Below, piece after piece: positions 9,048 to 33,950 of a DNA stretch of 64,000 nucleotides. The notes under the pieces are model-generated. The model saw nothing but the letters and a program-made list of their open reading frames with translations. It was not told the origin of the DNA and ran no database searches. Both the position numbers and the translations under genes were made by a program. How positions within the stretch are numbered: position 1 is the stretch's first letter; each line of letters starts with the position of its first letter. This DNA is from an alpha proteobacterium BAL199 (GTDB taxonomy: Bacteria > Pseudomonadota > Alphaproteobacteria > Thalassobaculales > Thalassobaculaceae): the NCBI GenBank assembly GCA_000171835.1, contig ABHC01000013.1, positions 104,340 to 168,339 on the forward strand, in the 5' to 3' direction.

Positions 9048-12000
9048 CGCCGCCGCAAGACCAGCAACCGGACATCCACCCGTCCCCGACCGACGAGGTC
9101 GCGGAGCTCGAGGCGGCGTTGGAGCGGTCGCTGCGGGTGATCAACCACCTGGAAGCAGCGCTGGAGCAGCGCGCCGGCGACGCCGGGACAGAGTCGCACC
9201 AACCGGTCGCCATCGTCGGCATGTCTTGCCGCTTCCCCGGCGGCGCCAACGACCCGGCCGCGTTCTGGGACCTGCTCGCCGGCGGACGCGAGGCGCGCGC
9301 CCCCATGGCGGCGGACCGCTGGACCGGCCCCGGCGCCCCGCCGCTGGGCCATTTCCTCGACCGGGTCCCCTACGGCGTCGACGACCGGGTGTTCCGGCTC
9401 TCGCCCGAGGAGATCCGCGGCCTGGACCCGCAACAGCGGCTGCTGCTCGAACTCGCCTTCGAAGCCTTCGAGGACGCCGGCTTGCCGCAAGGCCAGCTCG
9501 AAGGATCGCGCACCGGCGTGTTTCTCGGCCTGGAGAAGGCCGATTTCATCCGCGCCGGACTGTATTCCGGCGATCCCGAGCGGATCACCCCGTATACCGC
9601 CACCGGCATCGCCGGCAGTGCGGCGGCGGGACGGATCTCCTATCTGTTCGACCTGCGCGGACCCTGCCTCTCGCTCGACGCCGCCTGCGCGTCCTCCCTG
9701 GTGGCGGTCGACCAGGCCTGCGCCAGCCTGCGCCGGGGCGACTGCACCATGGCGCTGGCCGGCGCGGTCAGCCTCATGCTGGCGCCGGAGCCGTTCACGG
9801 CCCTGACCCGATTGGGCGCCCTGTCACCGGAAGGCCGCTGCAAGACCTTCTCCGCCGACGCCGACGGCTACGCCCGTGGCGAGGGCGGCGCCATCCTGGT
9901 GCTGAAACCGCTGGCGCAGGCGCAGGCCGACGGCGACCGGATCCACGGCGTGATCCTGGGCAGCGCGGTACGCCACGGCGGGCGCAGCAACGGGCTGACG
10001 GCCCCCAACATGGGCTCCCAGGAAGAGGTGATCCGAGCCGCCCTGGACGACGCCCGCATCGGCCCCGACGCGGTCGACTACCTGGAAGCGCACGGGACCG
10101 GAACGCCGCTGGGCGACCCGATCGAGATGGCGGCCGTGGAAGCGGTGTTCGCCGCGTCCAGACTCGAGGCCGGCAGCCCGCTCGCCATCGGGTCGGTCAA
10201 GACCAATATCGGCCATCTGGAAACGGCGGCGGGCGTCGCCGGGATCATCAAGGTTCTGCTGTGCCTGCGCCACGGGATGCTGCCACCGCATCTGCACTTC
10301 GAGAACCCGAGCGAGCATATCGACTGGCCGTCCCTGCCGGTGACCGTCCCGACCGAGGCCACCGCCTGGCCGTCGTCATCGCCGAGCCGGCGGCGCATCG
10401 CCGGGGTCAGCGCCTTCGGGTTCGCGGGAACCGTCGCCCATGTGGTTCTGGCAGGCGCCCCCGATGGAACCGACATCTGCGAACCGGCGACAGCCGACAC
10501 GACCGCGCTCCCCGACCGGTGCTGGCACCTGGTGACCGTCTCGGCCCGCAGCGAGGCGGCGCTGGCCGCCAATCTCGACGCGCTTGCCGCCCATGTCTCA
10601 CCCGACGACGGCCTGGGCGACGACGGCCTGGGCGACATCGCCCACACCGCCAATACCGGGCGCACGGCGTTCGAGTATCGCGCCGCCGCCGTGGCCAACG
10701 CGGCCAGCGCCCGGCCGGCGACCCTGCCGGCGACCCTGCGCGGACCGGACCTCATGAAAGGCCGATCCGGTCAAGCGGACGCCGGACAGATCGCGTTCGC
10801 GTTCACCGGCCAGGGATCGCAGTACCGGGGCATGGGCCGGGACCTTTACGCGACGTCGCCGGTGTTTCGCGACGCGCTGGATCGCTGCGCCACGCTTCTG
10901 GAACCGGAGCTGGACCGGCCGCTGATCGACCTGCTGTACGGCCCGGCGCCGGACCCGGAGGTGATCGACCGCACCGACTACGCCCAACCGGCCCTGTTCT
11001 CCGTCGGCTACGCCTTGAGTGCGCTCTGGCGATCCTGGGGCATTCACCCGGCCGTGGTGATGGGTCACAGCGTCGGCGAGATCACCGCCGCGCAGATCGC
11101 AGGCGTGTTCTCGCTGGAAGACGCGATCCGGCTGATCGCCGCGCGGGGACGCCTGGTGCAGTCGCTGACGCCGGCCGGCGCCATGGCGGCGGTCTTCGCC
11201 AACGCGGACACGGTCGCGGACCGCCTGAAGGACTTGGACGGCGGCGTTGTGATCGCCGCCCGGAACGCGCCGCGGAACACGGTCATCGCCGGCACGCCCG
11301 ACGCGGTCGCCCATGCCGTCGAGCACCTGCGCCAGGACGGGATCGACGCGCGCGCCCTGTCGGTTTCCCGCGCCTTTCACTCTCCCCTGCTGGACCCGGC
11401 GGTGGCGCCGTTCAGGGACGTGCTGGAGAGCCTGACCTACAACGCGCCGACGATCCCGCTGGTCACAAACCGCACCGGCCGGCTCGCGACCGCCAAGATC
11501 ACAACCGCCGAGATCACAACCGCCGACATCATGACCCCGGACGCCTGGTGCCGGCATCTTCTGGACCCGGTCCTGTTCGAGGACGGCGTCCGAGCCGTCG
11601 CCGAGGCCGGCATCCGGACGGTGATCGAAATCGGCCCGGCGCCGGTGTTGAGCGGTCTGGCCCGGCAGGTCGACGGATCGGACACGGCTCCGATCTGGAT
11701 GCCGTCCCTGATCGCCGCCAGCGAGGGCTGGCAACAGATGCTGTCGACCCTGGGCCAGTTGTACGTCCGGGGTGTCGATGTCGACTGGCCGGGCGTCGAC
11801 CGGGGACGGGTGCGCCGCAGGGTCGACCTGCCCACATACCGTTTCCAAAGAAACCATGCGGAGCCGCCGGCACCCCTCCCCGTTGCCCGCTCGGTCGGCG
11901 CCCTTGCTCGCACAACGCCAGAGGGCCCGGTTTCAGAGGGTCCGGTTTCAGAAGGTCCGGCATTCGACAGCGTTTCGCGCGGGTTCCAAGCCGTCACCAC

Positions 12001-15000
12001 TCTCGGCCGGGGGCTGCTGTGCCACGCCATGGAGCGGCTGGGCCTGTTCGATCGGCTGGAGGCCGCCGTCGCCCCGACCGTTGACGACCTGCGGTCCGAT
12101 CTGGGGATCGATCCCTCCTATGCCCGGCTGTTCGACGAGCTGCTGGCGATCCTGGCGCGGCACGGGGTTCTGGCGCTGGCCGAGGGTCGGGTCGTCGCGA
12201 CCGACATCCGACGCCACACATCCCCTGCCGACTCCATCCCTCCTGCCGACTCCGCGACCGTGGTGCGCGACCATCCGGATCTGGCGGCCATGGTCCGGCT
12301 GCTTGAGGTCTGCCTGGACGCCTATCCGGACGTGCTGCGGGACACCCGCAAGGCGATGGAGGTCCTGTTCCCCGGCGGGTCCATGGCGCTGGTCGAAGCG
12401 GTCTACCAGAGCGGCGACATCGCCGGTTATTTCAATCGCCTGGTCGCGGATGCGGTGCGCCAGGCCGTGACCGAGATCGGCGGCACCGGCGGGGCCGGCA
12501 TCCTGGAGATCGGCGCTGGAACCGGCGGCACCAGCCGGACGGTGCTGGCGGCCTTGGCCGAGAGGGAGACCGCCGCCCTCGCCTACCACTACACCGACAT
12601 TTCCGCCGGGTTCGTGCGTCAGGCGGAAATTCATCTGGGCGCGCGCTACCCGTTCACCCGGTTCCAGACACTCGACATCGAGCGGGATATCGCCGCTCAA
12701 GGCTGCCGGGAGGGCGGCTACGACGTGGTGCTGGCCAGCAACGTGCTGCACGCCACCCACGACATGGCCCACACCCTGGCACAGGCCGCCCGGCTGGTGC
12801 GCCCCGGCGGGCGGTTGATCATCAACGAGGTGACCCGGTCCCACGAATTCATCGGCATGACCTTCGGGCTAACGCCGGGCTGGTGGCTGTATCAGGACGC
12901 CGAGGTCCGTCAGGCCGGATCGCCGGTGCTGAGTCTGGCCAGTTGGCGCCGGATGCTGGCCGAGGCCGGTTTCGCGACGGTCGACACCCACGGATTGGAC
13001 GGCGACGACCCGGACGACCCGGTTCAGGCGGTGATCGTCGCCTATCGGGATGGCGGATCGGCGTTTGCCGCGCCGCAGGATCTGGACATCGGCGGGCACG
13101 GGGGCGCCGGCCATCGCGGCGCGCTCGAAGGGCGGCTGGTCGCCCTGGTCCAGCGGATCTCCGGCATCACCGTCAGCGATGGAGATACCGCGACCAACCT
13201 GTTCGCCCTGGGGCTCGACTCCCTGCTTCTGATGCAGATCAAGCAGGGCATGCAGGAGGAGTTCGGGGTCGAGGTCTCCATGGGACAGTTCTACAACGAG
13301 CTGTCCACCATCGGCGACCTGGTCGACCTGCTGGCGCGCCAGGTTTCGCCGGCGCCGACGGCAGCTCCGGGACCCGCTACCGGGTCGGTAGCCCAGACCG
13401 TTCCCCACGTCCCGCAGCCGGCGCCGGCGACGGCGGGCTCTCGGGACGCCATTCTGCGCGTGGTGGAGCAACAACTCGAGCTCATGCGCCAACAGCTCGC
13501 GTTGCTCGGTGGCGACCCGGGCGCGGTGGCTCTTCCCGCAATGCCGGCAACGGTGCCGACCGCGCCAGCGCCCCCCCTCGCAGCTCCCCACCCTGCCACA
13601 TTTGCATCTGCGCCGGCGGCATCTGCGCCGGGTGCATCTGCACCGGCGGCATCGGTCCAGGGGCCGATCGATGGCGCGTTGAGCCCGGCGCAGCAGCGCC
13701 TGATCGACGATCTGGTCCGGCGCTACACCGCCAAGACGGCGCGCTCCAAGGACGCGATGGCGCGTGCGCGCCCGGTGCTGGCGGACTGGATCGCGACCGT
13801 CGGGTTCCGCCCGGAGCTGAAGGAGATGATCTACCCGATCGTCTCGGTCGCATCCCAGGGCAGTCACGTCACCGATCTTGACGGCAACGACTATGTCGAC
13901 CTGGCCATGGGCTTCGGGGTCGAGTTCTTCGGCCACCGCCCGCCCTTCGTGGTCGACGCCGTGCGCGAGCGGCTGGACCGAGGGTTCGAGCTGGCGACCC
14001 AGTCGGATCTGGCCGAGGAGACGGCCCGGATGGTCGCCGAGTTGACCGGCGTCGAGCGGGTGACGTTCAGCAATACCGGAACCGAAGCGGTGATGACCGC
14101 GTTCCGGCTGGCGCGCACGGTGACCGGGCGCAAGCGCATCGTCCATTTCAAGGGCGCGTTCCACGGCTTCTATGACGGGGTCATGGCCTATGGCGGGCGC
14201 ACCGGCTCCACGCCCATGGTGCCGGGCATCCTGCAGAACCAAATCGACGACGTGCTGGTCCTGGAATACGGCTCCGACGAGGCGCTGCGGGTGATCGAAG
14301 CCGAGGCGGACAGCCTGGCCGGCGTGCTGGTCGAGCCGGTGCAGAGCCGCAATCCCGACCTGCAACCGCGCGACTTCCTGCACGCCCTGCGGCGGATCAC
14401 CGAGAGCCACGGCGTGGCCCTGATCTTCGACGAGCTGATCACCGGTTTCCGCGTCCATCCCGGCGGCGCCCAGGCGCATTTCGGGGTCACCGCCGACATC
14501 GTCACCTACGGCAAGATGATCGGCGGCGGCATGCCGATCAGCGTGATCGCCGGCAAGGCGCGGTTCCTCGACGCGATCGACGGCGGCGACTGGCGGTACG
14601 GCGACGGCTCGCGGCCGGCGGCGACCATGACGTTCTTCGGCGGAACCTTCTGCCGCCACCCGCTGTCGATGGCCGCCGCCCACGCCACCCTGCGGTTCAT
14701 GGCCGACCATGGCCCCGCATTGCAGGAGCGGGTCAACGCCCGCACCGAAGCGCTTGCCGGGCGCCTGAATGCCCTGTTCGGCGACCGCCGCATTCCGTTC
14801 CGGGTGGCCTGGTTCGCCTCGCAGTTCCAGATCCGCCAGGCGATGGCCGGCGGCGGGGGCGAGACGATCCAGTCGCTGGAGCTGGCGGTCTTCTTCTTCC
14901 TGCTGATGGAGCGGGGCATCTACACCTGGGAGCGTCGGGTCTGCTTCCTGTCGATCGCCCATGACGACGGCGATCTCGACCGCATCGTGTCGGCGGTGGC

Positions 15001-18000
15001 GGATAGCCTGGACGCGATGCTGGCCGCCGGGTTCTTCGGCGGCCGGTCGGCGCCCCCGGTCGCGCTGACCCCCGGCCAGAAGGACATGGCGTTCCGGGCG
15101 GCCCAGGGGACCGCCGCGTCGACCGCCTATGCCGAACCATTGGTGCTCGACCTGGAGGGGCCGCTGGACATCGCCGCCCTGCAGGGCGCGTTGGACGCGG
15201 TGATCGCCCGCCACGACGCGTTGCGGGTGGTGCGCATCGCCGACGACGCCGCCGAGATCGCGCCGAAGATATCGGTGGCGATCCGGCGCACCCTCGACAC
15301 CAGCCGGGACGCCGGCGACTGGCTGTCCGCCCTGTGCCGCCAGCCGTTCGATCTCGACGCCGGCCCCTTGATCCGCGCCCACCTGCTGGAGCTGGCGCCG
15401 GAGCGTTTCCGGTTCGCGCTGGTGCTGCATCACCTGATCGCCGACGGCTGGTCGGCCGGCGTCGTGCTGCAGGAGCTGGCCCGGATCTACAGCGCGCTGG
15501 CCGCCCGCGCGCCGCTCCCCGAGCTGCCGGCGCCGGTGTCCTTCGCGGCATACCAGGCCTGGTATGCCGATCGGCTGACCCGCCGCCGCGCGACGGTGCG
15601 CGGCTACTGGCGCCGACAGCTACGCGACGTGCCGCCGCTGGATCTGCCGGCCGACGTCCTCGCGCCCTCGCGCACCTCCGGGCGGGGACAGCGCCTGCGC
15701 CGGGAAATCGCGGGCGACACCACCACGGCGATCCGGGCGGCGGCGCGGGCCCACCACACCTCGTCCTTCGCGATCCTGCTCGGGACCTGGACGGCGCTGC
15801 TGTTCCGGCTGTCCGGCTCCCGGCGGATCACCGTCGGCGTCGCGAGCGCCGGGCAGTCCGCCATGGGCAAGGACACGCTGGTCGGCCAATGCTCCTCGCT
15901 GCTGCCGCTGATCGTGGAGGTGGATCCGGCGCTGTCCTGGACGGCGCTGCTGGAGCGGCTCACCGCAGCGCTCGGCGAACTGTGGGACCATCAGGACGTG
16001 CGCCCGGAAGACGTGATCGGGGACGATCCAGACCTGGCCCTGCCGCCCCTGCGGGCGTCGTTCAATCAGGACCGCGATCCGGGCGGATGCCGCTTCCACG
16101 GCCTGTCCGCCGCTTTGGCGCCCGCCGAAATCGGCTTCGTCAAGCACGCGCTGGCCCTGAACGCGATCGAGTCCGACGGTCGGATGCTGCTCGATTTCGA
16201 CTACGACACCGATCTGTTCGATCCCGCCACGGTGAGCGACTGGGCCGACGGGTATCGCGCCCTGCTCGACGCCCTGCTCCTCGCACCCGACGCGCCGATC
16301 ATCGCCGACGGCCCCGCCCCAGCGAGCGGGCCCGCAGGCCGCGCCCGGACCGCCGACTCCCCCCCGCTCGGCATCGGCGCCGACGCTTTCGACCGTCACG
16401 TCGAGGCCTGGATCGGGGCGGCGGAAATCGCCGCCGGCGACCGTCTGCACATCTCCGACGCGGCCGCGTCGGCACTTGGCGCCGACGGGGCGGCGGCGTT
16501 GCGTACGGCCGGGGCCACGGTCCTGCCGGCGGGCGCGCAGCGTCAGCCCGGAGACGGCGACATCCTGCTGGCCCGCGAGGCGTCCGGGATGCCGACAAGC
16601 GCCAAGATGCTGCTGGTCGATGACGGCACCTTGCTGGACATCACCCTCGCCGACCTGTTGCGGACCCGACCGGAGACCAGACTTTTCGTCGTCGCCCAGC
16701 CCACCGGACTGCCGGTATCGCTCGGCGTGGAGCGGGTGGACGCGGCGCGCGAGGAGTGGCGCCGTCACGGGCTGAGGGCGCCGTCGCCCTCTCTGAATGT
16801 CGATGTCCGGGACACCGACGGCCGGCCGGTGCTCAGCGGCGTCGCCGGAAACCTCCACCTCGGCCCGACATCGACCGGCGAGGCGGCGCGACGCCGGTCC
16901 GACGGGACGATCGAGCTGCTTGGTCCGGCCGATGCGATCGTTCACCACCGAAGCCACCCGGTGCGCGCCTCCACCGTGGCCGCAATCCTGCTCGCCCACC
17001 CCTCGGTGCGCGATGTCGCCCTCGACCCCGCCGCCGCGAGCTTCTCGGTGCAGGCCGCCATCGGCGACAGCGGTGTCGACGCGCAAACCCTGCGGCGATA
17101 CCTGCTGCGCCATCTGCCGGTGTGGAGTGTGCCCGGACGTGTCGTCGTGGTGCCGCAGTTTCCGGCCCCACCGGAAACCCCGGCCGAGACCACCCCGGAA
17201 GTCCGGGCCGACGGCCCGCAAACCGCTGAAATCATAACCCTGTTCCGCCATGTGCTGGGCGGCGTCGATGTCGCGGCAGACGATGACTTTTTCGATCTTG
17301 GCGGCGATTCCCTGGCGGCGACCCGCCTGGTCAACCAGGTCCGCACGGTGTTCGGCGTGGATCTGGCCATGCGCTCGGTGTTCGAAGCGCCGACACCCGC
17401 CCTGCTCGCCGCCCGGCTTGGGGACGCGGAACGGTCGACCCTGGCGCCGATCACCGCCGGCCGCCGTCCCGATCGACTTCCGCTGTCCCCGGCGCAACGC
17501 CGATTGTGGTTCCTGGAGCAGTTCGAGAGCACGGCCACCGCCTATGTCATGACGGTCGCCGTGCGTCTGAACGGTCCCCTGGACGTGTCCGCGCTGGAGC
17601 GGGCCCTGAACGCCGTCTTGGCGCGTCACGAAAGCCTGCGCACCCGCTTTCCGACGACCGACGACGAACCATGGCAGGAGATCCTTCCCGCCGCCGCTGC
17701 CCGTCTGACGTTGGCGCCGGTCGACACCACCGACGCGGCCCTGTTGCCAACTCTGGCGGCGCTCCAGGCGACGGACGCACGGTTCGATCTGGCCAACGAT
17801 CTGCCGGTTCGCGCGATACTCTACCGCCTGTCGGCCGATCGCCATGTCCTGGTCCTGCGGGTCCACCATATCGCCGGCGACGAGGAATCCTTGCGCCCCC
17901 TGGCCCAAGACCTTCGCCGCGCCTATTCGGATGCCTCCGCCCTGACGCCCTTGAGCCTCCAGGTCGCCGATGTTGCCCTATGGCAGCGGGATCAGACCTA

Positions 18001-21000
18001 CGACGACCAGGAGGCGTTCTGGGTCCGCGAGCTGGGCGACCTGCCGAGCGCCCTCGCATTGCCCTACGACACGCCCCCTGGAGGTGCCGGGCGCCATCGT
18101 CCCGCCGGACAGGTGCCGTTGCGGATCGGCGCCGCGTTGACCCGGCGATTGTCCGACCTCGCCCATGAGGAAAGGGCCAGCCTGTTCATGGCGCTTCAGG
18201 CCGGCCTCGCCACCCTGCTGCACCGCTACGGCGCCGGCGACGACATTCCGATCGGCGCCCCGTCCGCCGGGCGGAGCCGGCGCGAGCTGGAAGACCTGAT
18301 CGGCTTCTTCGTCAACATGATCGTTCTGCGCTGCCGCCTGGGCGGCCGGCCCAGTTTCCGCGACCTGCTGGCGCGCGTCCGCGGGTGCAATCTGGCCGCC
18401 TATGCGAACCAGGACGCGCCGTTCGACCGGGTGGTGGACCGCCTGCGCCCGCTGCGCGACGGTGAGGCGTTGGCCTTGCAGGTCGTGCTGGTGTTGGGAC
18501 AGGGCGATGCGGGTGCGCTCGACCTGCCGGGAATCGACAGCGCGCTTCTGCGCATCCCCGAGCGGGACGCCAAGTTCGACCTGAGCGTCATGCTGGCGCC
18601 CACGGAGGATGGCGGGCTCGCGGGTGAGTTGGTGTATGACGCCCACCTGTTCCGCCCGGAGACCGCCGCCCGGCTGGCCGACCACCTGGTGCGCATTCTC
18701 CAGGCCGCCGTGATCGCGCCGGACGAACCGGTCGCCCGTCTGGCGTTTCTGGCGCCGGCCGAGCGCCAGCCGCTTGTCGCCGAGCGAACCGAAACCATCC
18801 GGATCGATCCCGACGCCACGGTGACCGGTCTGCTGGAGGCCCAGGCGGCGGCGACCCCGGAAGCGGTCGCCCTGGTCGCCGCCGATGGCCGGGCGATGAC
18901 CTATTCCGCCCTTCACCGGACCGCCGCGACGGTCGCCGGCATCCTGAGGCGCCGGGGCATCGGGCGGGGTGACGTGATCGCGGTCCTGTGCCGGCGGTCG
19001 CCGGACATGGTGGTCGGCATTCTAGCCGCCCTGAAGGCCGGCGCCACCTATCTGCCGCTCGACCCGAGCTATCCGCCGGCCCGCCTCGCCTTCATCGTCG
19101 AGGATGCGGCCCCGGCCCTGGTGCTGAGTCAGTCGGAGCTGACAGAGATCCTCCCCTCCGACACCGAAGTATTGCTCCTCGACACAGTGCCGGAAGCCTG
19201 CGGATCAAACGCCACCGACGCGGCAAGCCCGCCCGCAACGCCGGACGATGCCGCCTACATAATCTACACCTCCGGCTCGACCGGGCAGCCGAAGGGGGCG
19301 ATCCTGCCGCACCGGGCGGTGGTGAATTATCTCGTCTGGGCGCGCGATACGTATCGCCCCGAGCTTGGCCGGGGTGCGCCGATCAACACCTCTATCGGCT
19401 TCGACGCCACCATCACCAGCCTGTTCCTGCCGCTGATCGCCGGCACCGCCGTGTATCTGATCGACGAGGAGGACGAGATCGGGGCGCTTGCCGCGTGCCT
19501 GAGCGACCACCGCGACTTCAGCCTGGTCAAGCTGACCCCCGCCCATCTCGATATCCTGCGGATGACGATGGCGCCGGAAGACCTCGCCGGCATGGCGCGG
19601 GTTCTGGTGATCGGCGGCGAAGCGCTGTCGGCCGCCACGGTGCAGGCATGGCGCGACCATGCGCCGGAGACCCGACTGTTCAACGAGTACGGCCCGACGG
19701 AAACCACGGTCGGCTGCATCGTCCACGAGGTCGGACCGGACACGCCGACCAGCGGGATGGTGCCGATCGGCCGGCCGATCGCGAACACGCGGATCTATCT
19801 GCTCGACGCCGAGATGCAGCCGGTTCCGGTGGGTGTTGCCGGCGAGGTGTACATCGCCGGTGCCGGCGTGGCGGATGGATATCTGAGGCGTCCGGAGCTC
19901 ACGGCGGAACGGTTCCTCGCCGACCCGTTCGGCGAACCGGGCGCGCGGATGTACCGCTCCGGCGATCTGGCGCGGCGCGACGCGGACGGCCGGATGGAGT
20001 ATCTCGGGCGCGCCGACGGGCAGATCAAGCTGCGCGGCCACCGGATCGAACCGGGCGAGATCGAGGCCGCCCTGCTGGCCCAACCATCGGTCGCCCAGGC
20101 TGCCGTCATTCTGCGCAAGGACGCCGTGGGAGATGCCGAACTGGCCGCGTATCTCGTGCCGGCGGCGGGCGTGGAACCGCGCGCGACAGCCGCGCTTCAA
20201 CAGGCGCTGAGCGAGCGGTTGCCGGCGGTGGCGGTGCCGTCATCCTACATCTGGGTCGACGCGGTGCCGCTCTCTCCGAACGGCAAGGTCGACCGGGCGC
20301 GGCTTGCCCGCGTGGCGGTCGCGCCCCGGCAGGCCGCCGCACCTGACGACCTGCCTTGCGCCCTCACGGAGCGGATCTGCGCGGCGTTCGCCGCCGCGCT
20401 GGAGGTGCCGCATGTCGCCCCCGACGCCAATTTCTTCGCCATCGGCGGGCATTCGCTTCTGGCCGCCCGGTTGATCATCCGCCTGCGGCGAGAGGTCGAT
20501 GACGGGCTGTCGCTCGGGGACCTGTTCGCGAACCCGACCGCCGCCGACTTGGCCGGGCTGCTGGCGGGTCGGGAACAGGCGACCCCGCGCCCCGGCCTCG
20601 TCCCGACCCCCGCCGACGCCGACGCCGACGCCGACTATCCGGTCTCGCCGGGTCAGCGGCGGCTTTGGGCGCTGGACCGGATGGAGCCGGGTCGTGCGGT
20701 CTACAACATGGCCTGCGCGTTCCTGGTCGACGGCGATATCGGCCCGGCCCGGCTGCGGGGCGCACTCGACGCCCTGATGCGGCGGCACGAGACGTTGCGC
20801 ACCGGCTTCGTGGCCGTCGGCGCGGAGCCGCGTCAGCGGGTGCACGCCGACTGCGCCGTGCCGTTGGTCGTCGAGGATCTGTCGCACTGGCCCGACCCGC
20901 TGGCGCGGGCCAAGGCGGTTGCCGACGCCGATGCGCGGACCCCATTCGACCTGGCGACGGCCCCGTTGTGGCGGGTCCGGCTGCTCGCCCTCGGCGGCAC

Positions 21001-24000
21001 CGGGGACGCGGCCCGGTCGGTGCTGGTGCTCAACATGCATCACAGCATCGGTGACGGCGCGTCGGTCCCGATCCTGATGCGGGAACTGTCGGCGTTCTAT
21101 GCCTCCGCAGGCGCCACCACCACCGGCGACGGAATCTCGCCGCTCGCGATCCAGTACCGCGACTATGTCGCCTGGTTCGAGACGTGGCTGAAAACGCCGA
21201 CGGCCGAGGAGGATCGGGCCTATTGGGTGGCTCGGCTGTCGGGGATGGGCGATTCGCTGGACCTGCCGACGGATCGGCCGCGCGGACTCGGCACCAGCGG
21301 ACGCGGCGGGCAGATCGCCCGGGAGTTCGGGTCGGCCGGCCGCGGGCTGTTGGCGCTCGCCGTCGAAGCGCGCACGACGCCGCTGGCGGTCCTGATCGCC
21401 TTGGTACGGGCGGTGCTGCATCGCTACACCGGCGCGACCGACATCACCCTCGGCACGGTGGTATCGGGGCGCGACGAGCCCGGGCTCGAGGACCAGATCG
21501 GCTTCTTCGTGAACACGCTGGCGCTGCGCGATCCGATCGACGGCGCGGACCGGTTCGCCGACGTGGTCGCCCGATCCGCCGGCACCCTCGGCGAGGCGCT
21601 GGCCCACGCCACCTATCCGTTCGAGCGGATCGTCGACGCGCTCGCCATCGGCCGGGAGCCGGGACGCACTCCGCTGTTCGACGTCCTGGTGACGATGGAG
21701 GAGGAGCTGCCCCGGCCGGTGTTCGGATCGGCGTCGGTCAGCCGGCTCGGCGACCTGGCCGTCAGCCGCCATTTCGACCTGACGTTCTTCTTCCGCGCGA
21801 CGGATGACGGGCTGGCGCTGGTCGTCGAGTACGACGGCGACCTGTTCGATGCCTGGCGCATCGCCCAACTCTGCGACCATCTGGAAACCTTCGCCGGCAA
21901 CGCGGTGGCCGCGCCGGAGCGCCCGATCCTCGATCTCGATATCCTGCGGCCCCAAGAACGCGATCGGCTGATCCGCGGGTTCAACCAGACCGCCACCGAC
22001 TATCCCCGCGACGCCAGCATCACCGAGCTGTTCCGCGCGCAGGCGGCCCTGTCGCCCGACGCCCCGGCCGTGCGCGAGGCCGGCGGCAACGCGCTCACCT
22101 ACGGGATGCTGGAGCGGCGCTCGAACCGGGTGGCCCACCGGCTGGTCGACGAGGCGGGCGTGGCGCCGGGCGATCTGGTCGGCCTGATGGCGACGCGGTC
22201 CTGCGACCTGATCGTCGCCCAGCTCGCGATCCTCAAGGCGGGGGCGGCCTTCGTGCCGATCGACCCGGACTACCCCCGGGGCCGGATCGACGCGATGCTC
22301 ACAGCGGTGGAGATCCGCTGTCTGATCGTCCAGGACGATGCCCCGATCGCGGTCCCCGATCGCTGCCGGCGGGTCCCGCTCTCCGCCCTCGATGGCGAGG
22401 CGGCCGAGGGACCGGACCGGCACCCGTCGGCCGAGGATCTGGCCTATGTGATGTTCACCTCCGGGTCGACCGGCCAGCCGAAGCCGGTGGCGGTGCCGCA
22501 TCGGGCGGTGGTCCGGCTGGTGCGCGACACCAACTTCGTGGCGCTGGGCGGCGACGACCGACTGTTGCTGACCGGCGCGCTGTCGTTCGACGCCACCACG
22601 TTCGAGATCTGGGGCATGCTGTTGAACGGGGGGACCCTGGTCCTCGCCGACTCCCGCCTGATCCTGGACGCCCGCGACCTCGGCCGGCTGTTGGCGGAGG
22701 AGCGGATCACCACCCTGTGGCTCACCAGCAGCCTGTTCAACCACATGGTCGACCAGGGGGCGGACCTGTTCGCGCCGCTGCGCACCCTGCTGATCGGCGG
22801 CGAGCGGCTGTCGCCGCCCCACGTGGCGGCGGTGCGCCGCCGGCTGCCGGCCTTGCGCCTGCTGAACGGCTACGGGCCGACCGAGAACACCACCTTCTCC
22901 CTGGTGCACCCGATCGACGCGGTCGAGGACGGGCGGGACATCCCGATCGGCCGCCCCATCGCCAACAGCCGGGCCTATATCCTCGGCCCCGGCGACCGTC
23001 TGGCACCGGTCGGCGTGGTCGGCGAGATCGTGGTCGGCGGCGACGGCCTTGCCCGGGGCTATCTCGGCCAGGACGCGCTGACGGCCGAGCGCTTTGTCGA
23101 TCATCCGGAGCTGGACGGCGAACGGGTCTATCGGACCGGCGATTTCGGGTGCTGGCTGCCCGACGGCAGCATCGCCTATCTCGGCCGGCGCGACCGCCAG
23201 ATCAAGATCCGCGGCGTGCGGATCGAAATCGGCGAGGTGGAAGCGGCGTTGCGCGCGCAAGCAGGGGTCGAGCGCGCCGCCGTCACCACGCGGGAGCGGG
23301 CCGGCGTCCCCGAACTCGTCGCCTATGTGACCGGCGATCTGGCGATGGACACCGACGCGGTCCGCCGGGATCTGCACACCCTCCTGCCGAAAGCGATGGT
23401 GCCCGCGCATGTCCTGAAGATCGACAGCCTGCCGCTCGACGGAAACGGCAAGCTGGACTACGCCGCTCTTCCCACCCCCACACCGGCCACCCCCACACCG
23501 GCCACCCCCACACCGGCCACCCCCACACCGGCCACCCCCACACCGGCCACCCCCACACCGGCCACCCCCACACCGGCCACCCCCACACCGGCCACCCCCA
23601 CACCGGCCACCCCCACCCCAACCACCGCATCCGAGTCAACCGCATCCCCCGACCGGGCCGCCAGCCGAGCCGCCAGCCGAACACCTGGCAATCCGCTTGA
23701 GACCGCGCTGATCGCCCTGTGGCGCGAGGTGCTGGAGCGCGACGCCGTCACGGTGGACGACAACTTCTTCGACCTGGGCGGCCATAGCCTGTCGGCGATC
23801 CGGTTGGCGCAGCGGATCCAGGAGACCCTCGGCATGTCCGTCGCCGTGCGCGACCTGTTCGCGATGCCGACCATCGCCGGGCTGGCCGCGCACCTGCTCA
23901 CCACGATGATGCGAGAGCGTCTGGGAACTCCCGCCGACCAACCACCAACCCACCCGGACCAGATCCACCCGCTGCCGCCCGCCGAAGACTACCCGGCGAC

Positions 24001-27000
24001 CGCGAACCAGCGCCGGCTGTGGTTCCTGCACCGCCTGGACGCGGGCCTGACCGCCTACAACATCGTCGGCGCATGGCGGCTTGACGGCGCGGTCGACACC
24101 GACGCCCTGCACGGCGCCCTTTCCCGGCTGGTCGCCCGTCACGAGGCGCTGCGCACGGTGTTCTCCGGGATCGACGGAGAGCCGCGCCAGCGGGTCCTGG
24201 ACACGGCCCCTCCACCGCTCTCGCTCGAAACCGTTGCAAGCGATGCCGAGGTCGAGGCGGCCCGCGACGCCGAGCTTGGCCATGTGTTCGATTTCGGCGC
24301 GCCGCTGCTGCGGGTCCGGCTGCTGCGGTGGACCGAAACGGCGTCGGTGCTGCTGGTGAACTGCCACCACCTGATCGCCGATGGCTGGTCGATGCGGGTC
24401 CTGCTGGATGAGTTGGCCGACGCTTACCGGACCCTGCGCCGGGGCGAGCTTCTTCGGGAAGGCCCGGCCCCGATCCAGTACAAGGACGCCGCCGCCTGGG
24501 CCGCCGCGCGCCAACGGGGCGGCGAGGGTCAAGCCGATCTGGACTACTGGCGGGAAACCCTGTCCGGCGATCTGGCAGCGCTGGAACTGCCGACCGATTT
24601 CCCCCGTCCGGCGCTCAAGAGCTATCGCGGCGCGGCGGTGCGGATCGGGGTCGACGCGGCGACTACAGCCGATATCCGAGCTCTATCGGAATCAAAAAAT
24701 ACAAGTTTATTCTGCATTCTATCGTCTTTAGTTAATGTTTTACTTTACCGATATACCGGACAGTGCGACATTCGCGTGGGCACACCGGTGGCGGGGCGTG
24801 GGCATCCGGGCCTGGATCGGGCCGTCGGGTTCTTCGCCGACACCGTCGTGTTGCGCAATCACCTCGACGCCGACGACGCCTTCAACACCCTGCTCGACCG
24901 GATGACGACCACGCTCGCAGACGCGCTGGCGCATCAGTCGACACCGTTCGAGCACGTGGTCGCCGCCGTCGGCGCCGACCGGGATCCGGCGCGATCGCCG
25001 TTCTTCGACGTCATGGTCACCCTGGCGGAGGCGGAGCGGCCGCTTGTCCTGGATGGACTGCGGGCCGTCGCAATGCCCCTGCCCGAGATCACGACACAGT
25101 TCGATCTGACCTTCCGGTTCCAGGACCTTGGCGAGACCCTGGCGCTGGAACTGTCCTACAATACCGACCTGTTCAGCGACGCCCGCATCACCCGGATGGC
25201 CAACCATCTGAAGACGCTGATACGCGCGGCGGCGACCGACGGGACCCAATCCATCGCCCATCTGCCCTTGATGGCGGCGGCGGAGGCCGAGCAGGTCACC
25301 CGGGACTTCGCGTTCGACCGGGCCGCGGTCGATTGCTCCCCCAGCCTGGCGGCCTTGTTCGAGGCCCAGGCCGACCGCACCCCGTCGCGGCCGGCGGTGG
25401 TCGGCGACGACGGTAGTGTCGACTACCGGGCGCTGGACCATGCGGCCAACGGCTGGGCGGCGGCTCTGCTGGACCACGGTCTGCGGCCCGAAGAGCCGGT
25501 CGGGCTGGCGTTGCCCAGCGGATCGGTTGCGCTGATCGCGGCGATGCTCGGCATCCTGAAAGCGGGCGGCGCCTATGTGCCGCTCGACCCGAGACACCCC
25601 GCCGACCGGCTGCGCGCCATGATCGCCGATGCCGGCTGCCGGCTGGTGCTCACGGCCGAGACCCGGGATGCGTCGGGGCTTGCAGACTCCACCTTGATCC
25701 GCGCGCCCATCACCCCACGGGCCGACCGCCCGGCCCGGATCGACGGGGGCGACCGGCTCGCCTATATCCTGTTCACCTCCGGATCGACCGGCCGTCCGAA
25801 AGGCGTGATGGTCGAGCAACGGGCGGTGGTGAACCTGATCCACGGCCTGAACCGGGCGATCTACGACCCCCTGGCAACCACCGGACCGTTGCAGGTCGCC
25901 CAATTCGCCTCCGTGGTGTTCGACGCGTCGGTTCAGCAGATCTTTCCGGCCCTGCTGGCCGGCCACACCCTGCACCCGGTCGACGGAGCCCTGCGCCGTG
26001 ACGCGCCCGCCCTGCTGCGCTGGTTCCGCGCGCGCGGCATCAACGTCGCCGACGGCACGCCCACGCTCCTCGACATGCTGCTGGAGGCCGGTCTCGATCG
26101 CACACCGCTTCCGGATCTGCGCCACCTGATCCTGGGCGGTGAGCCGCTGTCGTCGGCAGCGCTCCGACGGCTGCGCGAGAACCCGTCGCTGGCGGGTCTC
26201 GCCGTCACCAACGCCTATGGACCGACCGAGACCACCGTCGATGCCACCTTGTTCGAGCTGCGCGGCGACGCTCCGCTCCCGGCGGTGATCCCGATCGGCA
26301 CCCCGCTGCCCAATGTCGAGGCGCTGATCCTGGACGCCAACGGCGAGCCGGTCCCGATCGGCGTGGCCGGGGAGCTGCATATCGGCGGCGCCGGTCTGGC
26401 GCGCGGATACGTGGCCGCCTCCCCAGCGGACAACGCCCGCTTCATCCCCCATCCCCACCGCGACGGCGAACGGCTGTACCGCACCGGAGATACGGCGCGG
26501 TGGTTGGAGGACGGCGCCATCGAGTTCCTTGGCCGGCGCGACGGGCAGATCAAGATACGCGGCCACCGGATCGAGGTCGGCGACGTGGAAGCCGCCCTGA
26601 AGCGTGCGCCGGGTATCCGTCACTGCGCGGTGGGTGTTCAACCCGGAGGACCTCGCCCCGCGCTGACCGCGTGGATCGTCGCGGACCGGGAGATCCCGAC
26701 GGCCGATCTGCGGCGCCATCTGGCCGGCCACCTGCCGGACGCGATGATCCCGGCGCGTTTCCAGGTCCTGCCGGCCCTCCCCCTGACCCCCAGCGGCAAG
26801 ATCGACCGAAAAGCCCTGGCCGCCATGCCCCTGGCCGCCATGCCCGTGACCACCATGCCCCCGGCCCGGCAGGACGGCGCGCCCGAGGTGCCGGAGAGCG
26901 CGCTTGAGGCCGGCATCGCGAAAATCTGGGAGGAGGTGCTGGGCCGGAGCGGGATCGGCCGCACCCTGAATTTCTTCGAGATCGGCGGCGACAGTGTGGG

Positions 27001-30000
27001 CGTGCTGCGGGTGCTGAGCCGGCTTGAGCACCGCCTGGGGATCGATGTTCCGGTCGACACCTTCTACCGGGCGCCGACCATCGCCGATCTGGCGGCCGCC
27101 GGGGCGGCGACCTCGATTGTGACGGCGCATCTCCAAACGGCGCATCCCCAAACGGCGGCGGCGACGGAAACCCTGGCCCCGTGTTCGGCGCTGACGCCCG
27201 CCCAGCACCGGTTGTGGGTGATCGCCGAGATGGATCCGGACAACGGCGGTTATGCGATGCCGGCCGCGTTCCAACTGGACGGCATGCTTGATGTGGCGGC
27301 CCTGCGGCGGGCGCTCGCGGTCCTGATCGAGCGCCACGAGCCGCTGCGCACCGTCTTCCCCATGATCGAGGGCGAGCCGCGCCAGAAAGTTCTTCCCCCC
27401 GCGCCGCTGACGCTGGATCCCGAGCTGGTGGCGGACCTGGACGCGGCGCGGGCGGCCATGGTCGCCGAGATCGCCCGGCCGTTCGACCTGGCGCACGGGC
27501 CGCTGCTGCGGTGCCGGCTGTTCCGCCTGTCGGAGCGGCGGCATCTGCTGCTGGTCTGCCTGCACCACATCATCGGCGACGGGCAGTCGCTAGCCGTCAT
27601 GGCCGGCGAACTCGGCCACGCGTACGACGCGCTCACCGCCGGTCGCGAACCGGCCCTGACACCGCTGCCGCTGACCTACCGCGCGGCGGCATCGGCCATC
27701 GCAGCCCGTCGTCAGGACCCGCGCGCCAAGGCCGATCGGGCGTATTGGCTGGACCGGTTCGCCGACCCGGTACCGCCCCTCGACCTGCCGACCGATTTCC
27801 CCCGATCGGCCGAAACCGGTTACGACGGCGGCGTCCATGTGGTGCCGGTCGACGCCGATGTGGCGGCCGGTCTTCGGGAGATGGCGCATCGATCCGGCGG
27901 GACCCTGTTCGCCGTGGTCCTCGCCCTGGTCGCCCGTCTGCTCCAGCGGGTGAGCGGGGCACGCGACCTGGTGATCGGCATCCCGGTCGCGGGGCGTTTC
28001 AACCCGGATTTCGAGCCGCTGGTCGGCCTGTTCGCCGAAACCTGTCCGGTGCGGATCACCGGCGACCCTGACGAGGATTTCGAGGCCCTGCTGACCCGCG
28101 TCGGTGCGACGGTGCGGGGGGCGATCGGCCACGACCGGTTCTCGTTCGACCAGTTGGTGGAAGACCTGGACGTTCAATCGCAGGCGGGCCGGTCGGCGCT
28201 TTACGATGTGATGGTCGCCGGCCAGGTCGGTGAGGCGGTCCCGCTCAGCCTGTCGGGCCTCACGGTCGACGCCGTTCCGCTCGGCCCCGCCGGCAGCCAG
28301 GTCGATCTGACCGTCAACGTGCTCGACCACGGGGGCGGGCTGGAGCTGTCGATCGTCTACCGTCGGCGCCTTTTCCGGGCGGAGCGGATCGCCGCATTCG
28401 CCGATGACCTGATCGCGCTGACCCGCGCGGTGGGGAGCTTGGATCGCGGGACAGCCAGCGTCGAGTCCCGCCTGCTCGCCCTGTGGCGGGAGGTTCTGGG
28501 TCGCGACGGGTTCGGCATCGACGACACGTTCCTCAGCGTCGGTGGTCACAGCCTGAAGGCGGCACGGCTGGTCCGGCGGATCTGGAGCGAGTTCGGGGCG
28601 AGCGTGAAGCTGCGCGACGTGTTCGCCCATCCGACCGTGCGATCCCTGGCGGCGCTGATCGAGGGGACCGAACCGGTGCCCTCGACCGCTGAGGCGCCCC
28701 CCGAGACGAGATCCCTCGGCGAGGCCGTGGCTCCCGCATCGGCGGCGCAGACACGGCTCTGGGTGCTGGCACAGATGGCGCCCGACCCGCGGGTCTACGC
28801 CATGGTGACGGCCCTGGAGCTGACCGGCCCGCTGAACGTCGCCGCCCTGGACCGGGCGTTCCAGGCGCTGGTGGCCCGTCATGAGGCGCTGCGGACCGTG
28901 TTCGAAACCGACGGCGACGGCGTCCTACGGCAACGCATCCAGCCCTCCGACGCCTGCGGCTTCCGCCTGGAGGTGGTGGACGGCGCGGCCGAAGGCCCGG
29001 ACGTGCCCGACTTCAACTTGGCCACCGGCCCCCTGTTCCAGGTGCGCCTGGAGCGGCGGGCGGCGGATCGCCATCGCCTGCGCATCGCCCAGCATCACAC
29101 GATCGGCGACGGCTGGTCCTGGACAGTGCTGGCGCGCGATCTGTCGGTGCTGTATCGCGCGGCCCTGGACAAGAGCGAGCCGGACCTCCCGGCGCTGGCG
29201 ATGCAGTATCGCCATGTCGAGGTGCAACGGTCCCGATGGCTCGACGGTCCGGGGGGAGCGGCGGCACGGCGGTTCTGGCTGGAGACCCTTTCCGGCGACA
29301 TCCCGCGCGTCAACCTGCCCGCGGACTTCCCCCGCCCGAAGCTCCAGAGCTTCGACGGCGCGCTGCATGCCTTCACCCTGCCGCCCCGAACCGCCGAGCG
29401 GCTGAAGGCCTTTGCCGAGGACCGGGGGGCGACGCTGTTCATGGGACTGCTGGCCGCCGTGAAGGCCCTGATCCATCGCTACACCGGGCTTGAGGACGTG
29501 GTGGTCGCCACCCCGGTCGCCGGCCGGGACGAGGCCGCGCTCGACGACCAGGTCGGGCTGTACATGAACACGCTCGCCCTGCGGACCCGCTTCAGCGCCG
29601 AGCGCGGCTTCGCGGCTTTGCTGGACGCCCTCCGCGACGGTGCCGCCGACGCTTTCGACCATCAGGGATACCCGTTCGACCGGCTTGTGGAAGATCTCGA
29701 CCTGCCCCGCGATCTCAGCCGCAACCCGGTGTTCGATGTGCTGGTCGCCCTGCAGAACCACGCGCCGGCCGAAGTCGATCTGGCCAGGGTCACCGCCCGC
29801 GCCGAGCCGGATGCGGGCGGGATCGCCAAGGTCGATCTCAGCTTCTATTTCACCGAGTCCGAGACCGGTATCGGTGCCTGGGTCGAGTACAACACCGGCC
29901 TGTTGCGCCCGGAGCGCATCCGCCGGCTGGAAGGCCATTTCCACACCCTGCTGGACAGCGCCCTCGCCGACCCCGAAGCCGCCCTCGGCCAGCTCGACAT

Positions 30001-33000
30001 CCTGACCACCGAGGAGGCTGGGGCGGAGCGGCGCTGGACCACTGCCGCGGACATCCCCGGACCGACCACCGTCGTCGATCTGTTTGAACGGCAAGCCGCC
30101 GCCAAGCCGAATGCCGTGGCGGTGCGCTGCCAGGGACGCCACGTCACCTATCGCACCTTAGACCGCTGGGCCGATCGGATCGCGGCCCGACTGCGTGCGC
30201 GCGCCGACCTGGCGCCCGGCGAGCGGGTCGCGGTCGACCTGCCCCGATCGGAAGCCTTGATCGCGGCGATGTTCGGAATCTGGAAGGCCGGACTGGTCCA
30301 TGTCCCGATCGCTCCGGGCGACCCGGCGGAGCGCAAGGCGTTCCTGATCGCCGACGCCGGATGCAAGGCGGTGATCGGCGGCGACGCGGACAGCATCGTG
30401 CCCCGCATCGATCCGACGAACGACCGCTCCAGGCCCACCGCTCGCGGTGCGGAATGCTCACCCGGCGACGTGGCCTACGTGTTCTACACCTCCGGGTCGA
30501 CCGGCAAGCCCAAGGGCGTGATGATCGAGCACCGCAACCTGGCTGCCTTCGCCCGGATTCTGCACGGGGCTTTCGGGATGCGGGACGGCGACGCGGTGTT
30601 CGCCCTGACCACCGCCACCTTCGACATTTCGATGCTGGAGCTGATCTGCCCGCTGACCCAGGGCTTGCGGGTGACCGTGGCCGACGATGCGACCGTAGCG
30701 GACCCGGCCCTCACCCTCGCCGATATCCGGGACAGCGGGGTGACGGTTCTGCAAGTCACGCCGTCCCGGCTCGCCCTGCTGCTCGCCCAGGATGGCGGGC
30801 TGGGCGCGGTCCGGTTGCTGTTGGTCGGCGGCGAGGCGCTCCCGGCGTACCTGGCCGCCTCCCTCCGCGCTCTGCATGGCCCGGACGGAAAACCGATCGC
30901 GGCGTTCAACGTCTACGGCCCGACCGAAACCACGATCTGGTCCACCGCGGAGGAGATCGGCGACGCGCCCCCCGGCATCGGCTGGGCCCTGCCCGGCGAG
31001 GTGGTGCTGATCCTCTCGCTCGCCGGTCGCCCGCAACCGGTCGGCGTGCCGGGGGAGATAGCGATCGCCGGCGCCGGGGTCGGGCGCGGCTATCTGGCGC
31101 GCGCGGATCTGACGGCGGAGCGGTTCACGGCGGACCCGACTCAGCCGGAGCGCCGGATGTACCGAACCGGCGACCTCGGCCTCCGGCGCGCGGATGGCGG
31201 GATCGAGTTTCTGGGCCGGGTCGACGATCAGGTGAAGCTGCGCGGATTCAGGATCGAGCCGGGCGAGATCGAGGCTGCGCTGACCGGCCACCCCTCGGTG
31301 CATCAGGCCAAGGTCGTCGTCCGCGACATCGCCGGCGCGCCGGAGCTGGTCGCCTATGTGGTGGCGCCGACATTGGACCTTCCGGGCCCCGGCGAGGCGG
31401 ACCTGCGCGCCCGGCTGCACGAAACCCTGCCGCCCCATATGGTGCCCATGGTGATCGTCGCCCTGGACGCCTTGCCGCTGCTACCGTCGGGCAAGATCGA
31501 CCGCAAGGCGTTGCCGAACCCCGAGGTCGCGCCGCCCGCGTCAGCGTCGGCGGCGGCCTTGGAGGGACCGGCGGACACGCTGGAGTCCGGTGTCCTGGCC
31601 CTGTGGCGAACGGTGCTGGCGCGTCCCCATGCCGGGCCGGATGACGATTTCTTCGACGGCGGCGGCCATAGCCTGCGCGCGGCCCAGCTCGCCAACCGGG
31701 TGCGCGAGACGTTCGGCGTCGCGTTCGGCCTGCGCGACGTGTTCCTGTTGCCGACGGCGCGTCGGATGGTGCGGGAGATCGCGCGCCGACGAACCCGGGA
31801 CCTGCCGCCGTTGGCGGCGGTGGCGACTGACGGCGACTACCCCCTGTCCCACGCCCAGCGCCGGCTGTTCGCCCTCGACCGCCTGGACCCGGGGGGCTGC
31901 GCCTACCTGATCGCCGGCGCCTTCCGGATTGCCGGGCCGCTCGATCGGAGCGCCCTGGAGCGGGCGATGGCGTGGCTCGTCGCCCGGCACGAGGCGCTAC
32001 GGACAAGCTTCAGGCTGATCGACGGCGACCCGCGCCAGGTCGTCGAGGCGGCACCGGCATTCACCCTGGGATACAGCGATCTTTCCAACGCCAAGGACCC
32101 CGAGGCGGACGCCGCGGCGATCGTCGGGACCGAGGCCCGGACGCCGATCCGCTCGGACGCCGCCCCGCTGTTTCGCGCGCACCTGCTGCGGGTGGCGCGG
32201 GATCGGCACATCCTCGCCTTCACGCTCCACCACCTGATCGCCGACGGCTGGTCCCTGGGCGTCCTGCTGGAGGATCTGGAGCACGCCTATGAGGCTTTTG
32301 CCAGCGACCATGCGCCGACGCGCCCCGCCCTGGCCCTGCACTACAAGGACTACGCGGCCTGGGAGCGGGTGCTTGCCACGACCGCCGCGCGGGAGCGCAG
32401 CCGCACCTACTGGCACACCCGCCTGGCCGGCCCCCTGCCGGTCCTGACCCTGCCCATGGCCAACGATCGGCCGGCCCGGCGCAGCGACCGGGGCGGCCAG
32501 GTGCCGTTCGCCATTACCTCCGAGCTCGGACGCGCCTTGTCGGAAAAGGGCCGCAAGCAGGGTGCGACCCTGTTCATGATGCTGCTGGCCGCGTCGGCCT
32601 CGTTGTTCCACCGACTGACCGGCGCGCGCGACATGATCCTCGGGTCGGTCACCGGCAACCGCGACCACTCGGATCTGGAGACCATGGTCGGCTGTTTCGT
32701 CAATCCGCTGCCGCTGCGCCTGGCGGTGTCGCCGGACGACACCCTCTCCACCGTGCTGGAGGGCGTGCGGACCGCTTCGCTGGAGGCGCTGGAGCACGGG
32801 ATCTACCCGTTCGACCAGTTGGTGCGCGAACTGGGCGCGGGCCGCGACGCCAGCCGGTCGCCGTTGTTCGATATCGGCCTCACCTGGAATGCCCTGCCCC
32901 ACATGGAACGGGATCGGTTCGCCGGGTTGGCCTTGAGCCCGTTCGGCGACGGCGCGCAGGCGGCGAAATACGATCTGCTGATTGTCGCCGGGCCGGACGG

Positions 33001-33211: not shown

Positions 33212-33950
33212 ATGAGCAGACTGACGACCTCCCCCGCGCGCGCCGACCTTGCCCGCTATACCGGACACGGGTTCGATGCCCACCGCGCGTTCTGGCAGGA
33301 CCGGACCGCCGCCTGCGTGGACCCGGTGGATCTCGGGGCTGATGGAACCTCCCCGGCAACCCACGCGCATCCGTTCTCCGCGGAGGCCGCCGGGACCCTA
33401 GCGCGGATTTCCGGCGGCCAGGAGCTCGGCCGGCTCGTGGTGGTCACGGCGGCAGTCGCGCGGGTGTTGGCCGCGTGGGGCGGGGGACAGTCGATCCTGG
33501 TCGACACACCACCGCTCCCGACCTCCGCCCATGCCGGCGAACCGGTGGCGATGGTGCTGCCGCTGATGCTCACCGGCACCGTGCGTGATCTGCTGACCGC
33601 GACCCGCGCGGTGATCGCCGATGCCTATGGTCATCAGGACTTCCCGATCCGCCGCTTGTCCGACCCCGCCTTGCCCGAAGCCCGGATGATGATCGCCAGC
33701 CCGGCTCTCCACGACGTGCCGGCGGACAACGAAGCGCGGGACCTGACGCTCACGCTGGACCTGACCCTCACGCTGGAGCAGACCGGCCTGCGGCTGCGCC
33801 ACCGGCTGGCCCCCTGGCGCGCCGCCGCCTTCGCCGCCCAGATCGACCGGGCCGTGGCCGGTTTCGCGGAGACCGACCGCCCGCTCGCCGACATCGACCT
33901 GCTGTCGGCCGGGGAACAGGCCACGGCCCTGGCGTTCGGACGGGGCCCGG
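33212..33950 (+). other. N-truncated condensation-domain half (C*), directly following the complete terminal C domain of the preceding protein
   Basis: Alignment by eye to C-domain C-terminal subdomain motifs; the N-terminal lobe carrying the catalytic histidine motif is missing. Confidence 0.5.

Follow-up and report, generated by a model that had tools for sequence, protein, structure and literature searches.

Interspecies recombination produces mosaic genes such as the pbp genes of Streptococcus and Neisseria, and in nonribosomal peptide synthetase (NRPS) genes the exchange units that recombine span hundreds to thousands of nucleotides. In Streptomyces, secondary metabolism is subject to bldA/TTA-codon control. 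The NRPS exchange units mainly involve the A-core domain and alter substrate specificity (Baunach et al. 2021, PMC8097286), and a short-patch illegitimate integration of ectopic single strands, SPDIR, has been described experimentally in Acinetobacter (bioRxiv 10.1101/2023.11.22.568220). Clusters of rare codons within reading frames are a described phenomenon, for which position-specific conservation across homologues is the hallmark of selection (PMC5438181, PMC2565806), and MucR-family silencers of AT-rich DNA are documented in alphaproteobacteria (PMC9410896, PMC8857273). Here, we describe a 99-nt AT-rich, rare-codon patch inside a condensation (C) domain of a hybrid polyketide synthase-NRPS (PKS-NRPS) gene of strain BAL199, an unclassified alphaproteobacterium in NCBI whose genome is that of a 2007 environmental isolate. 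The window analyzed is a 64,000-nt stretch of this genome (contig ABHC01000013.1, positions 104,340 to 168,339 of the forward strand), and all coordinates below refer to it. The patch is genuine and its composition is statistically extreme. We describe it as a mosaic or compositional island on a micro scale within a conserved domain and tentatively read it, at somewhat less than an even chance, as the outcome of one short-patch replacement with DNA from a low-GC homologue.

The limits of the patch, 24662-24760, were drawn from third-codon-position composition. An earlier note made from the sequence alone had counted by hand ~33% GC at 24671-24760; the measured value is 0.333, within a host open reading frame (ORF) at 0.710 GC, and the anomaly extends upstream to 24662. 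The patch also holds the 60-nt GC minimum of the window (0.25 at 24688; window mean 0.695, sd 0.062), the second-lowest 60-nt value, 0.417, lying between genes near 61.7 kb. GC at the third codon position (GC3) is 0.24, vs 0.875 expected for the same peptide written in host codons (Poisson-binomial P = 3.6e-18). The shift is not purely synonymous: compared to the rest of the ORF, GC drops from 0.66 to 0.36 at the first codon position and from 0.64 to 0.45 at the second, as well as from 0.83 to 0.24 at the third, and the amino-acid composition of the patch is AT-shifted too. For codon positions 1 and 2 combined, GC is 0.41 vs a mean of 0.63 (z = -3.6, 33-codon windows).

Codon usage gives the same picture. 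An index similar to the codon adaptation index is 0.13 for the patch vs 0.72 (z = -5.8). A/T-ending codons make up 25/33, with T-ending and A-ending codons equally frequent, and 18/33 codons have a relative synonymous usage <0.10, vs 7.3% of background codons. These rare codons include three UUA, two CUA, and two CGA; across the four megasynthase ORFs, TTA occurs only 6 times in 15,800 codons, and half of these occurrences lie inside the patch. The ~25 consecutive rare codons noted earlier are rare as described but not strictly consecutive, since TTC, TGC, ATC, GCC, TAC, ACC, and TCG are interspersed. Overall, the patch displays the dense clustering seen in selected rare-codon clusters, its gene shows the UUA rarity and concentration of bldA-like gating, and its AT-richness is that of a target of xenogeneic silencers of the MucR/H-NS type.

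Both boundaries are sharp. All codons at 24629-24661, immediately to the left, are G/C-ending, the A/T-ending fraction is again at about background downstream of 24760, and the flanks show no compositional gradient. This discontinuity of composition and codon usage, with abrupt limits, is what would be expected of a mosaic tract. The patch is also unique in its setting, being the only low-GC3 run in a conserved domain across the 15,800 megasynthase codons and the only strongly AT-rich DNA within the coding part of the 47-kb assembly line. The other low-GC3 runs of the megasynthase ORFs are Pro/Ala-rich linkers or the doubtful 5' end of ORF 2229..9047. In the latter, GC3 is low (0.40-0.47) at 2238-2468 and the first ~80 codons are Gly/Pro/Arg-rich in translation; its true start codon is probably further downstream, the AMP-binding domain beginning only at residue 117. 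A second candidate island, in a 0.61 GC NRPS locus of Pseudomonas sp. MWU13-2105 (L010, positions 1270-1380; 60-nt GC minimum 0.23), was set aside because it is intergenic; it precedes an ORF whose start is at 1538 and so represents an ordinary promoter region rich in AT.

At the protein level, the patch belongs to an intact domain. The patch-bearing C domain matches the PF00668 profile over the domain, carries an intact HHxxxDG motif, and can be aligned over its full length to solved C domains (best match Txo2, 7e-77), without gaps at the patch. Its AlphaFold2 model has a mean pLDDT of 91, rising to ~95-98 at the patch, which corresponds to residues 214-246 and coincides nearly exactly with a helix (212-224), a loop, and a second helix (229-245), directly followed by a strand (249-257) and the C5 motif. 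Judged from this model and these alignments, the patch peptide is a structurally ordinary, genuine C-domain segment, in line with the earlier description of a normal C-domain motif region.

Table 1. Position of the patch and of the surrounding features in the window
Feature	Position	Strand	Details
Type II thioesterase	965-1696		
AMP-binding-ACP-KS-AT-KR-ACP protein	2229-9047		
Host gene, 8056-aa hybrid PKS-NRPS	9029..33199	+	KS-AT-MT-ACP-aminotransferase, then several C-A-T modules; 0.71 GC
Condensation domain hosting the patch	24023..25330	+	Pfam PF00668 match; HHLIADG at 24365-24385
AT-rich rare-codon island (patch)	24662..24760	+	33 in-frame codons, encodes TTADIRALSESKNTSLFCILSSLVNVLLYRYTG; GC 0.354, GC3 0.24
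Sole polymorphism seen in the patch	24689	+	G>A, GAA Glu -> AAA Lys; JGI 3300078737, contig L027
TTA (Leu) codons x3	24707, 24728, 24740 (24707..24742)	+	Within 36 nt
A(MT)-T-C protein	33212-38137		
(C-A-T)3-TE protein	38148-49655		
ABC exporter	50460-52100		
ShlB/FhaC-type two-partner-secretion transporter	59518-61761	-	Adjoins the IS256-family transposase
IS256-family (mutator-type) transposase	62046-63323	-	Cluster edge

The patch is present in independent assemblies of the same locus. Metagenome contigs were chosen via the neighboring 1641-aa protein, which is encoded residue for residue on 16 contigs; ten of these were retrieved, and nine of the ten, from nine samples, cover the patch (ENA ERZ28668938, -40, -42, -43, -46, and ERZ1283866; JGI 3300078350, 3300078395, and 3300078737). 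Their names are SPAdes-style (NODE), MEGAHIT-style (k141), and JGI. The 99-nt patch is exact in 8/9 covering contigs, and the ninth differs by one single-nucleotide polymorphism (SNP), a substitution that raises the AT content of the patch further. Beyond the patch, 2-8 other sites and an upstream 90-nt indel in repeat number distinguish the covering contigs from the window, so that several haplotypes are represented; the tenth retrieved contig is more divergent (20 SNPs) and ends before the patch. The sampled contigs are ≥99.9% identical across the compared region. Positions 39094 (A>G) and 45828 (T>C) differ from the window in all metagenome contigs that cover them, reflecting either two errors in the 2007 BAL199 draft or two private variants of the isolate.

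The patch is thus not an assembly artefact. The earlier note had listed an assembly or engineering artefact among the possible explanations, to be recognized by the absence of the patch from independent sequencing of the strain. An assembly chimera, a contamination, or an engineering scar in the deposited genome would account for the sharp discontinuity and for the GAGCTC and GATATC restriction sites at its left edge. Such an artefact is effectively excluded because nine independent de novo assemblies from nine samples, in several assembly styles and haplotypes and with one SNP inside the tract, carry the patch; in addition, the reading frame and the conserved motif are intact. We consider its probability negligible.

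Next to its closest relatives, the composition of the patch stands out. The homologous segments in three paralogous C domains of the same gene are at 0.67-0.70 GC or near it. Contigs of 185,579 species representatives were scanned for homologues; BAL199 itself was not among the matches, and no close orthologous cluster was found there. The closest homologues, from Rhodopila (L007) and Acidisphaera (L008), both Acetobacteraceae, are not orthologues; they share 49% identity over the whole domain, and their loci are at 0.69-0.70 GC. At the patch position, both align without gaps or length difference and use mostly G/C-ending codons, with 0.57-0.87 GC per 30 nt. A protein-index search with the domain gave a best identity of 42%, with no hit there longer than ~820 aa, and a 42-aa patch query against the same type of index returned no candidate, a result that is uninformative given that the index may lack megasynthases. 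Conversion of the flanks by a paralogue was rejected: over short stretches, paralogues reach at most ~72-87% identity, and the patch itself has no match among them. The patch has no similarity to the rest of the 64-kb window, and the repeats around it are limited to chance-level repeats of 7-11 nt, with no meaningful direct or inverted repeats and no target-site duplication.

We then considered how well different codon sources explain the 33 codon choices, given the amino acids. The log-likelihood (lnL) is -84.0 under host usage, -41.5 under the usage of Nostoc NRPS genes, -41.6 under that of Bacillus thuringiensis NRPS genes, and -43.0 under that of the NRPS genes of a TARA contig at 31% GC, i.e., low-GC NRPS usage is favored over host usage by about e^42. 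The GC and GC3 of the patch (0.35/0.24) are likewise close to those of NRPS genes from B. thuringiensis (0.34/0.21), the TARA contig (0.32/0.22), and Nostoc (0.37/0.27). Low-GC organisms have C domains with variants such as SLVNVLLYRY(T/S)GQ; one of these organisms, Chitinophaga sancti, is the top overall hit of the patch-bearing domain.

Based on these patterns, we infer both a foreign origin and a mechanism of entry. Specifically, a single event would have put the homologous part of an NRPS condensation-domain gene of an organism at ~33-37% GC in place of the ~99 nt encoding the helix-loop-helix before the C5 motif, with frame, length, and fold kept. The resulting micro-mosaic would now be carried by all contigs sampled from the species. 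Ordinary homologous recombination is an unlikely route because donor and recipient DNA would be only ~50% identical (identity of the patch to homologous low-GC segments is 0.42-0.56). A short-patch illegitimate event would be required instead, possibly through annealing of single-stranded foreign DNA at microhomologies at the replication fork, in an SPDIR-like manner, or alternatively through a double template switch. This foreign replacement is ranked first because a single event would explain ~45 coordinated changes, the coherent shift at all three codon positions, the sharp limits, and the uniqueness of the patch. Like pbp mosaic genes, the locus features a sharply bounded in-frame block of foreign composition within a native gene whose protein fold is kept; unlike them, the tract is only 99 nt long, the donor would be ~50% identical at the DNA level, and no donor was found. 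The likeness to SPDIR lies in the use of ectopic short single strands at microhomologies without long flanking homology and in changes clustered over tens of bases, although SPDIR itself is a laboratory microindel mutation mechanism. If foreign, the patch would share with the exchange units described earlier (PMC8097286) a recombination event inside an NRPS gene, which for those units also occurs between distant phyla; it differs from them in spanning two C-domain helices without a predicted effect on specificity.

Several observations weigh against a foreign replacement. In a mosaic tract, similarity to the relatives of the recipient gene should drop inside the tract, and no such drop was seen for the two closest homologues: identity to the Rhodopila homologue (70% GC) is 0.58 in the patch vs 0.48 in the flanks (z = +1.0), and identity to the Acidisphaera homologue is 0.52 vs 0.48 (z = +0.2). 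Among 740 C domains, for which patch identity averages 0.39 (sd 0.09), the Rhodopila domain, which is the closest relative of the flanks, ranks 5th by patch identity, at or above the value predicted from its flanks, and the patch in turn ranks ~16 of 739 for the Rhodopila segment. The two segments share five non-consensus residues, each found in 14-24% of C domains. On sequence comparison, the patch peptide thus looks native to its C-domain lineage, unless the donor came from the same subfamily. No donor more similar inside the tract than outside was found in the collections searched. A scan of metagenome contigs with the 51-aa patch region gave, among the matches listed, two loci at 37-39% identity. 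An exhaustive phmmer search with the 43-aa patch against 1.84 billion representatives, whose ranking was inflated by multi-module proteins and was therefore redone per single stretch, gave best identities of 58-67% per stretch; judged by identity, such matches are within the chance tail when the best of very many C domains is picked. Plasmids (blastn, tblastn), phages (blastn), and viral contigs (degenerate-pattern scan) yielded no donor either. No close orthologue that might lack the patch turned up in the collections searched. Finally, an in-frame, equal-length illegitimate replacement at the exact homologous position is intrinsically rare. We know of no documented case of an SPDIR replacement of this kind fixed in a natural population.

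The codon likelihoods belong among these points as well: host codons modified by C:G>T:A transitions fit the codon choice at least as well as low-GC usage (lnL -37.9, two fitted parameters). The CGA, CTA, and TCG codons of the patch were considered as a sign of in-situ transitions and dismissed, NRPS genes of B. thuringiensis and Nostoc using CGA and CTA appreciably. Overall, codon likelihoods do not separate the models because the transition model has fitted parameters and low-GC genes use CGA and CTA. The recombination patch from a low-GC donor proposed in the earlier note is the most economical reading and consistent with composition and codon likelihoods; the donor itself and a drop in similarity to the nearest high-GC homologue were not found.

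Two further readings take the patch to be a native segment. In one, which we consider rather unlikely, the segment became, or stayed, AT-rich through selection for a nucleic acid-level function within the coding sequence. By analogy with known systems, this function could be a rare-codon/UUA translational gate comparable to bldA, possibly with Rho-dependent polarity; alternatively, an AT-binding nucleoid protein, e.g., MucR, could nucleate there, or RNase E could use the patch as its entry site. Any such element would throttle the 47-kb lipopeptide assembly line. This reading accommodates a patch peptide whose similarity to the nearest high-GC homologue matches that of its flanks, a frame and length unchanged relative to homologues, and a codon repertoire that host codons plus transitions reproduce. 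It is also consistent with the location of 3/6 TTA codons in the patch, the 18/33 codons below 0.10 relative usage, and the status of the patch as the sole AT-rich spot in the coding region of the cluster, with both MucR-family silencing (PMC9410896, PMC8857273) and rare-codon clusters (PMC2565806, PMC5438181) providing precedents. The patch is further found in every covering contig from nine samples, although this ubiquity says little about selection, since the contigs are ≥99.9% identical. A selected pause should, however, leave rare codons conserved by position, and no such cluster is conserved: the site is GC-normal in the paralogous C domains as well as in the closest homologues (49% identity). 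A pause would need synonymous changes only, yet codon positions 1 and 2 are shifted, and ~45 coordinated substitutions in 99 nt demand a very strong and very local selection. No dedicated element was recognized either: neither strand of 23500-26000 contained a sigma-70-like promoter or an intrinsic terminator, and there was no Rfam match to the patch at E ≤ 1, and no unusually stable RNA fold of the patch (z = +0.58). Among known protein-binding motifs, the patch contains no Fur box (best match with 6/19 mismatches), no RirA IRO site, no CtrA site (pattern with 2 mismatches), no IHF site, and no dif site (best match anywhere with ≥13 mismatches), and the 64-kb window encodes no tRNA gene. The internal promoter or regulatory site suggested by the earlier note thus finds no counterpart in these searches, and the programmed pause suggested there is physically reasonable as a slowdown, while conservation of the rare codons in homologues is absent and the AT shift in amino acids would be unneeded. 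Comparisons with the model systems are similarly mixed. As for co-translational folding pauses (PMC2565806, PMC5438181), the patch is a dense in-ORF rare-codon cluster located after an N-terminal lobe; unlike functional rare-codon clusters, it is not conserved in homologues, and its amino-acid composition is shifted. As in bldA/TTA control, UUA is nearly absent from high-GC coding sequence and concentrated in a secondary-metabolite gene, yet the host is an alphaproteobacterium, and the codons belong to the structural gene of a megasynthase, not to a regulator. Similar to targets of MucR/H-NS-type silencing (PMC9410896, PMC8857273), the patch is AT-rich relative to a GC-rich alphaproteobacterial genome, whereas known targets are AT-rich genes or promoter regions and the patch is a 99-nt intragenic island. 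By analogy, the more specific version of this reading, a selected cis-element acting as a UUA/rare-codon gate, perhaps together with Rho polarity or the binding of nucleoid proteins to AT-rich DNA, would represent a bldA-like logic that arose independently in a marine alphaproteobacterium and would tie lipopeptide output to rare tRNA supply or derepression from inside a structural megasynthase gene; we regard it as distinctly improbable.

In the other native reading, the segment was hit by localized GC-to-AT mutation, e.g., through clustered deamination of cytosines or an error-prone repair event at a lesion or gap, and purifying selection then kept the helix pair, leaving an AT-richness without function. 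Every A/T-ending codon of the patch is 1-2 C:G>T:A transitions away from a host-preferred codon, the transition model has the best likelihood of those compared, the sole polymorphism in the patch is also G>A, and the lineage-specific residues shared with the Rhodopila homologue are retained in the peptide, all of which fits such a process. Against it, A- and T-ending codons are equal in number, without a strand-coordinated signature, and the flanks show no gradient. A burst altering ~70% of third-position G/C sites should also have hit positions 1 and 2 similarly and wrecked the motif, and the peptide is nonetheless a high-confidence C-domain segment; a repeated local process, for its part, has no known basis. 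We consider this explanation very unlikely.

Coming back to a short foreign replacement, consequences for expression may still follow. The rare codons would probably slow ribosomes locally, and the AT-rich composition probably offers a site to nucleoid proteins. When ribosomes reach the patch, synthesis of the C-domain N-terminal lobe (model residues to ~180-200) lies ~30-40 codons behind them, and a slowdown at this point could loosen the coupling of transcription and translation in a 24-kb gene. We regard both the slowing of translation and the nucleoid-protein site as side effects, not as the reason for the patch.

The gene hosting the patch is part of a cluster (965-52100) whose layout presumably follows the logic of beta-amino-fatty-acid lipopeptides, e.g., iturin or puwainaphycin. 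The BAL199 GenBank proteins EDP63595.1, EDP63598.1, and EDP63611.1 are encoded in the window (exact protein match), and one cluster protein is annotated in GenBank merely as "plipastatin synthetase". Upstream of the patch, after an A domain of the 8056-aa gene, an 18-nt tandem repeat at 23478-23625 encodes a (TPTPAT)n Pro/Thr-rich linker. In copy number, the window and the metagenome contigs L001 and L002 are five repeat units apart (90 nt, 30 aa), the host-gene product of these contigs being 8026 aa long, and several metagenome contigs end exactly at this repeat. At the cluster edge, the IS256-family transposase is multicopy in BAL199 and present in metagenome-assembled genomes of other marine alphaproteobacteria.

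Either way, the patch calls for caution in expression work, as 18/33 of its codons, three UUA included, are very rare in the host megasynthase genes. If it is a selected element, it would act from within a megasynthase gene as a compact and portable throttle on expression, with relevance to the activation of silent clusters and to heterologous expression. If its foreign origin is true, it would show that very distant bacteria can exchange pieces as small as one helix pair (~100 nt) within a conserved enzyme domain, well under the size at which horizontal transfer and the recombination of NRPS genes are usually detected, and would constitute a natural counterpart of the short-patch illegitimate recombination observed in the laboratory.

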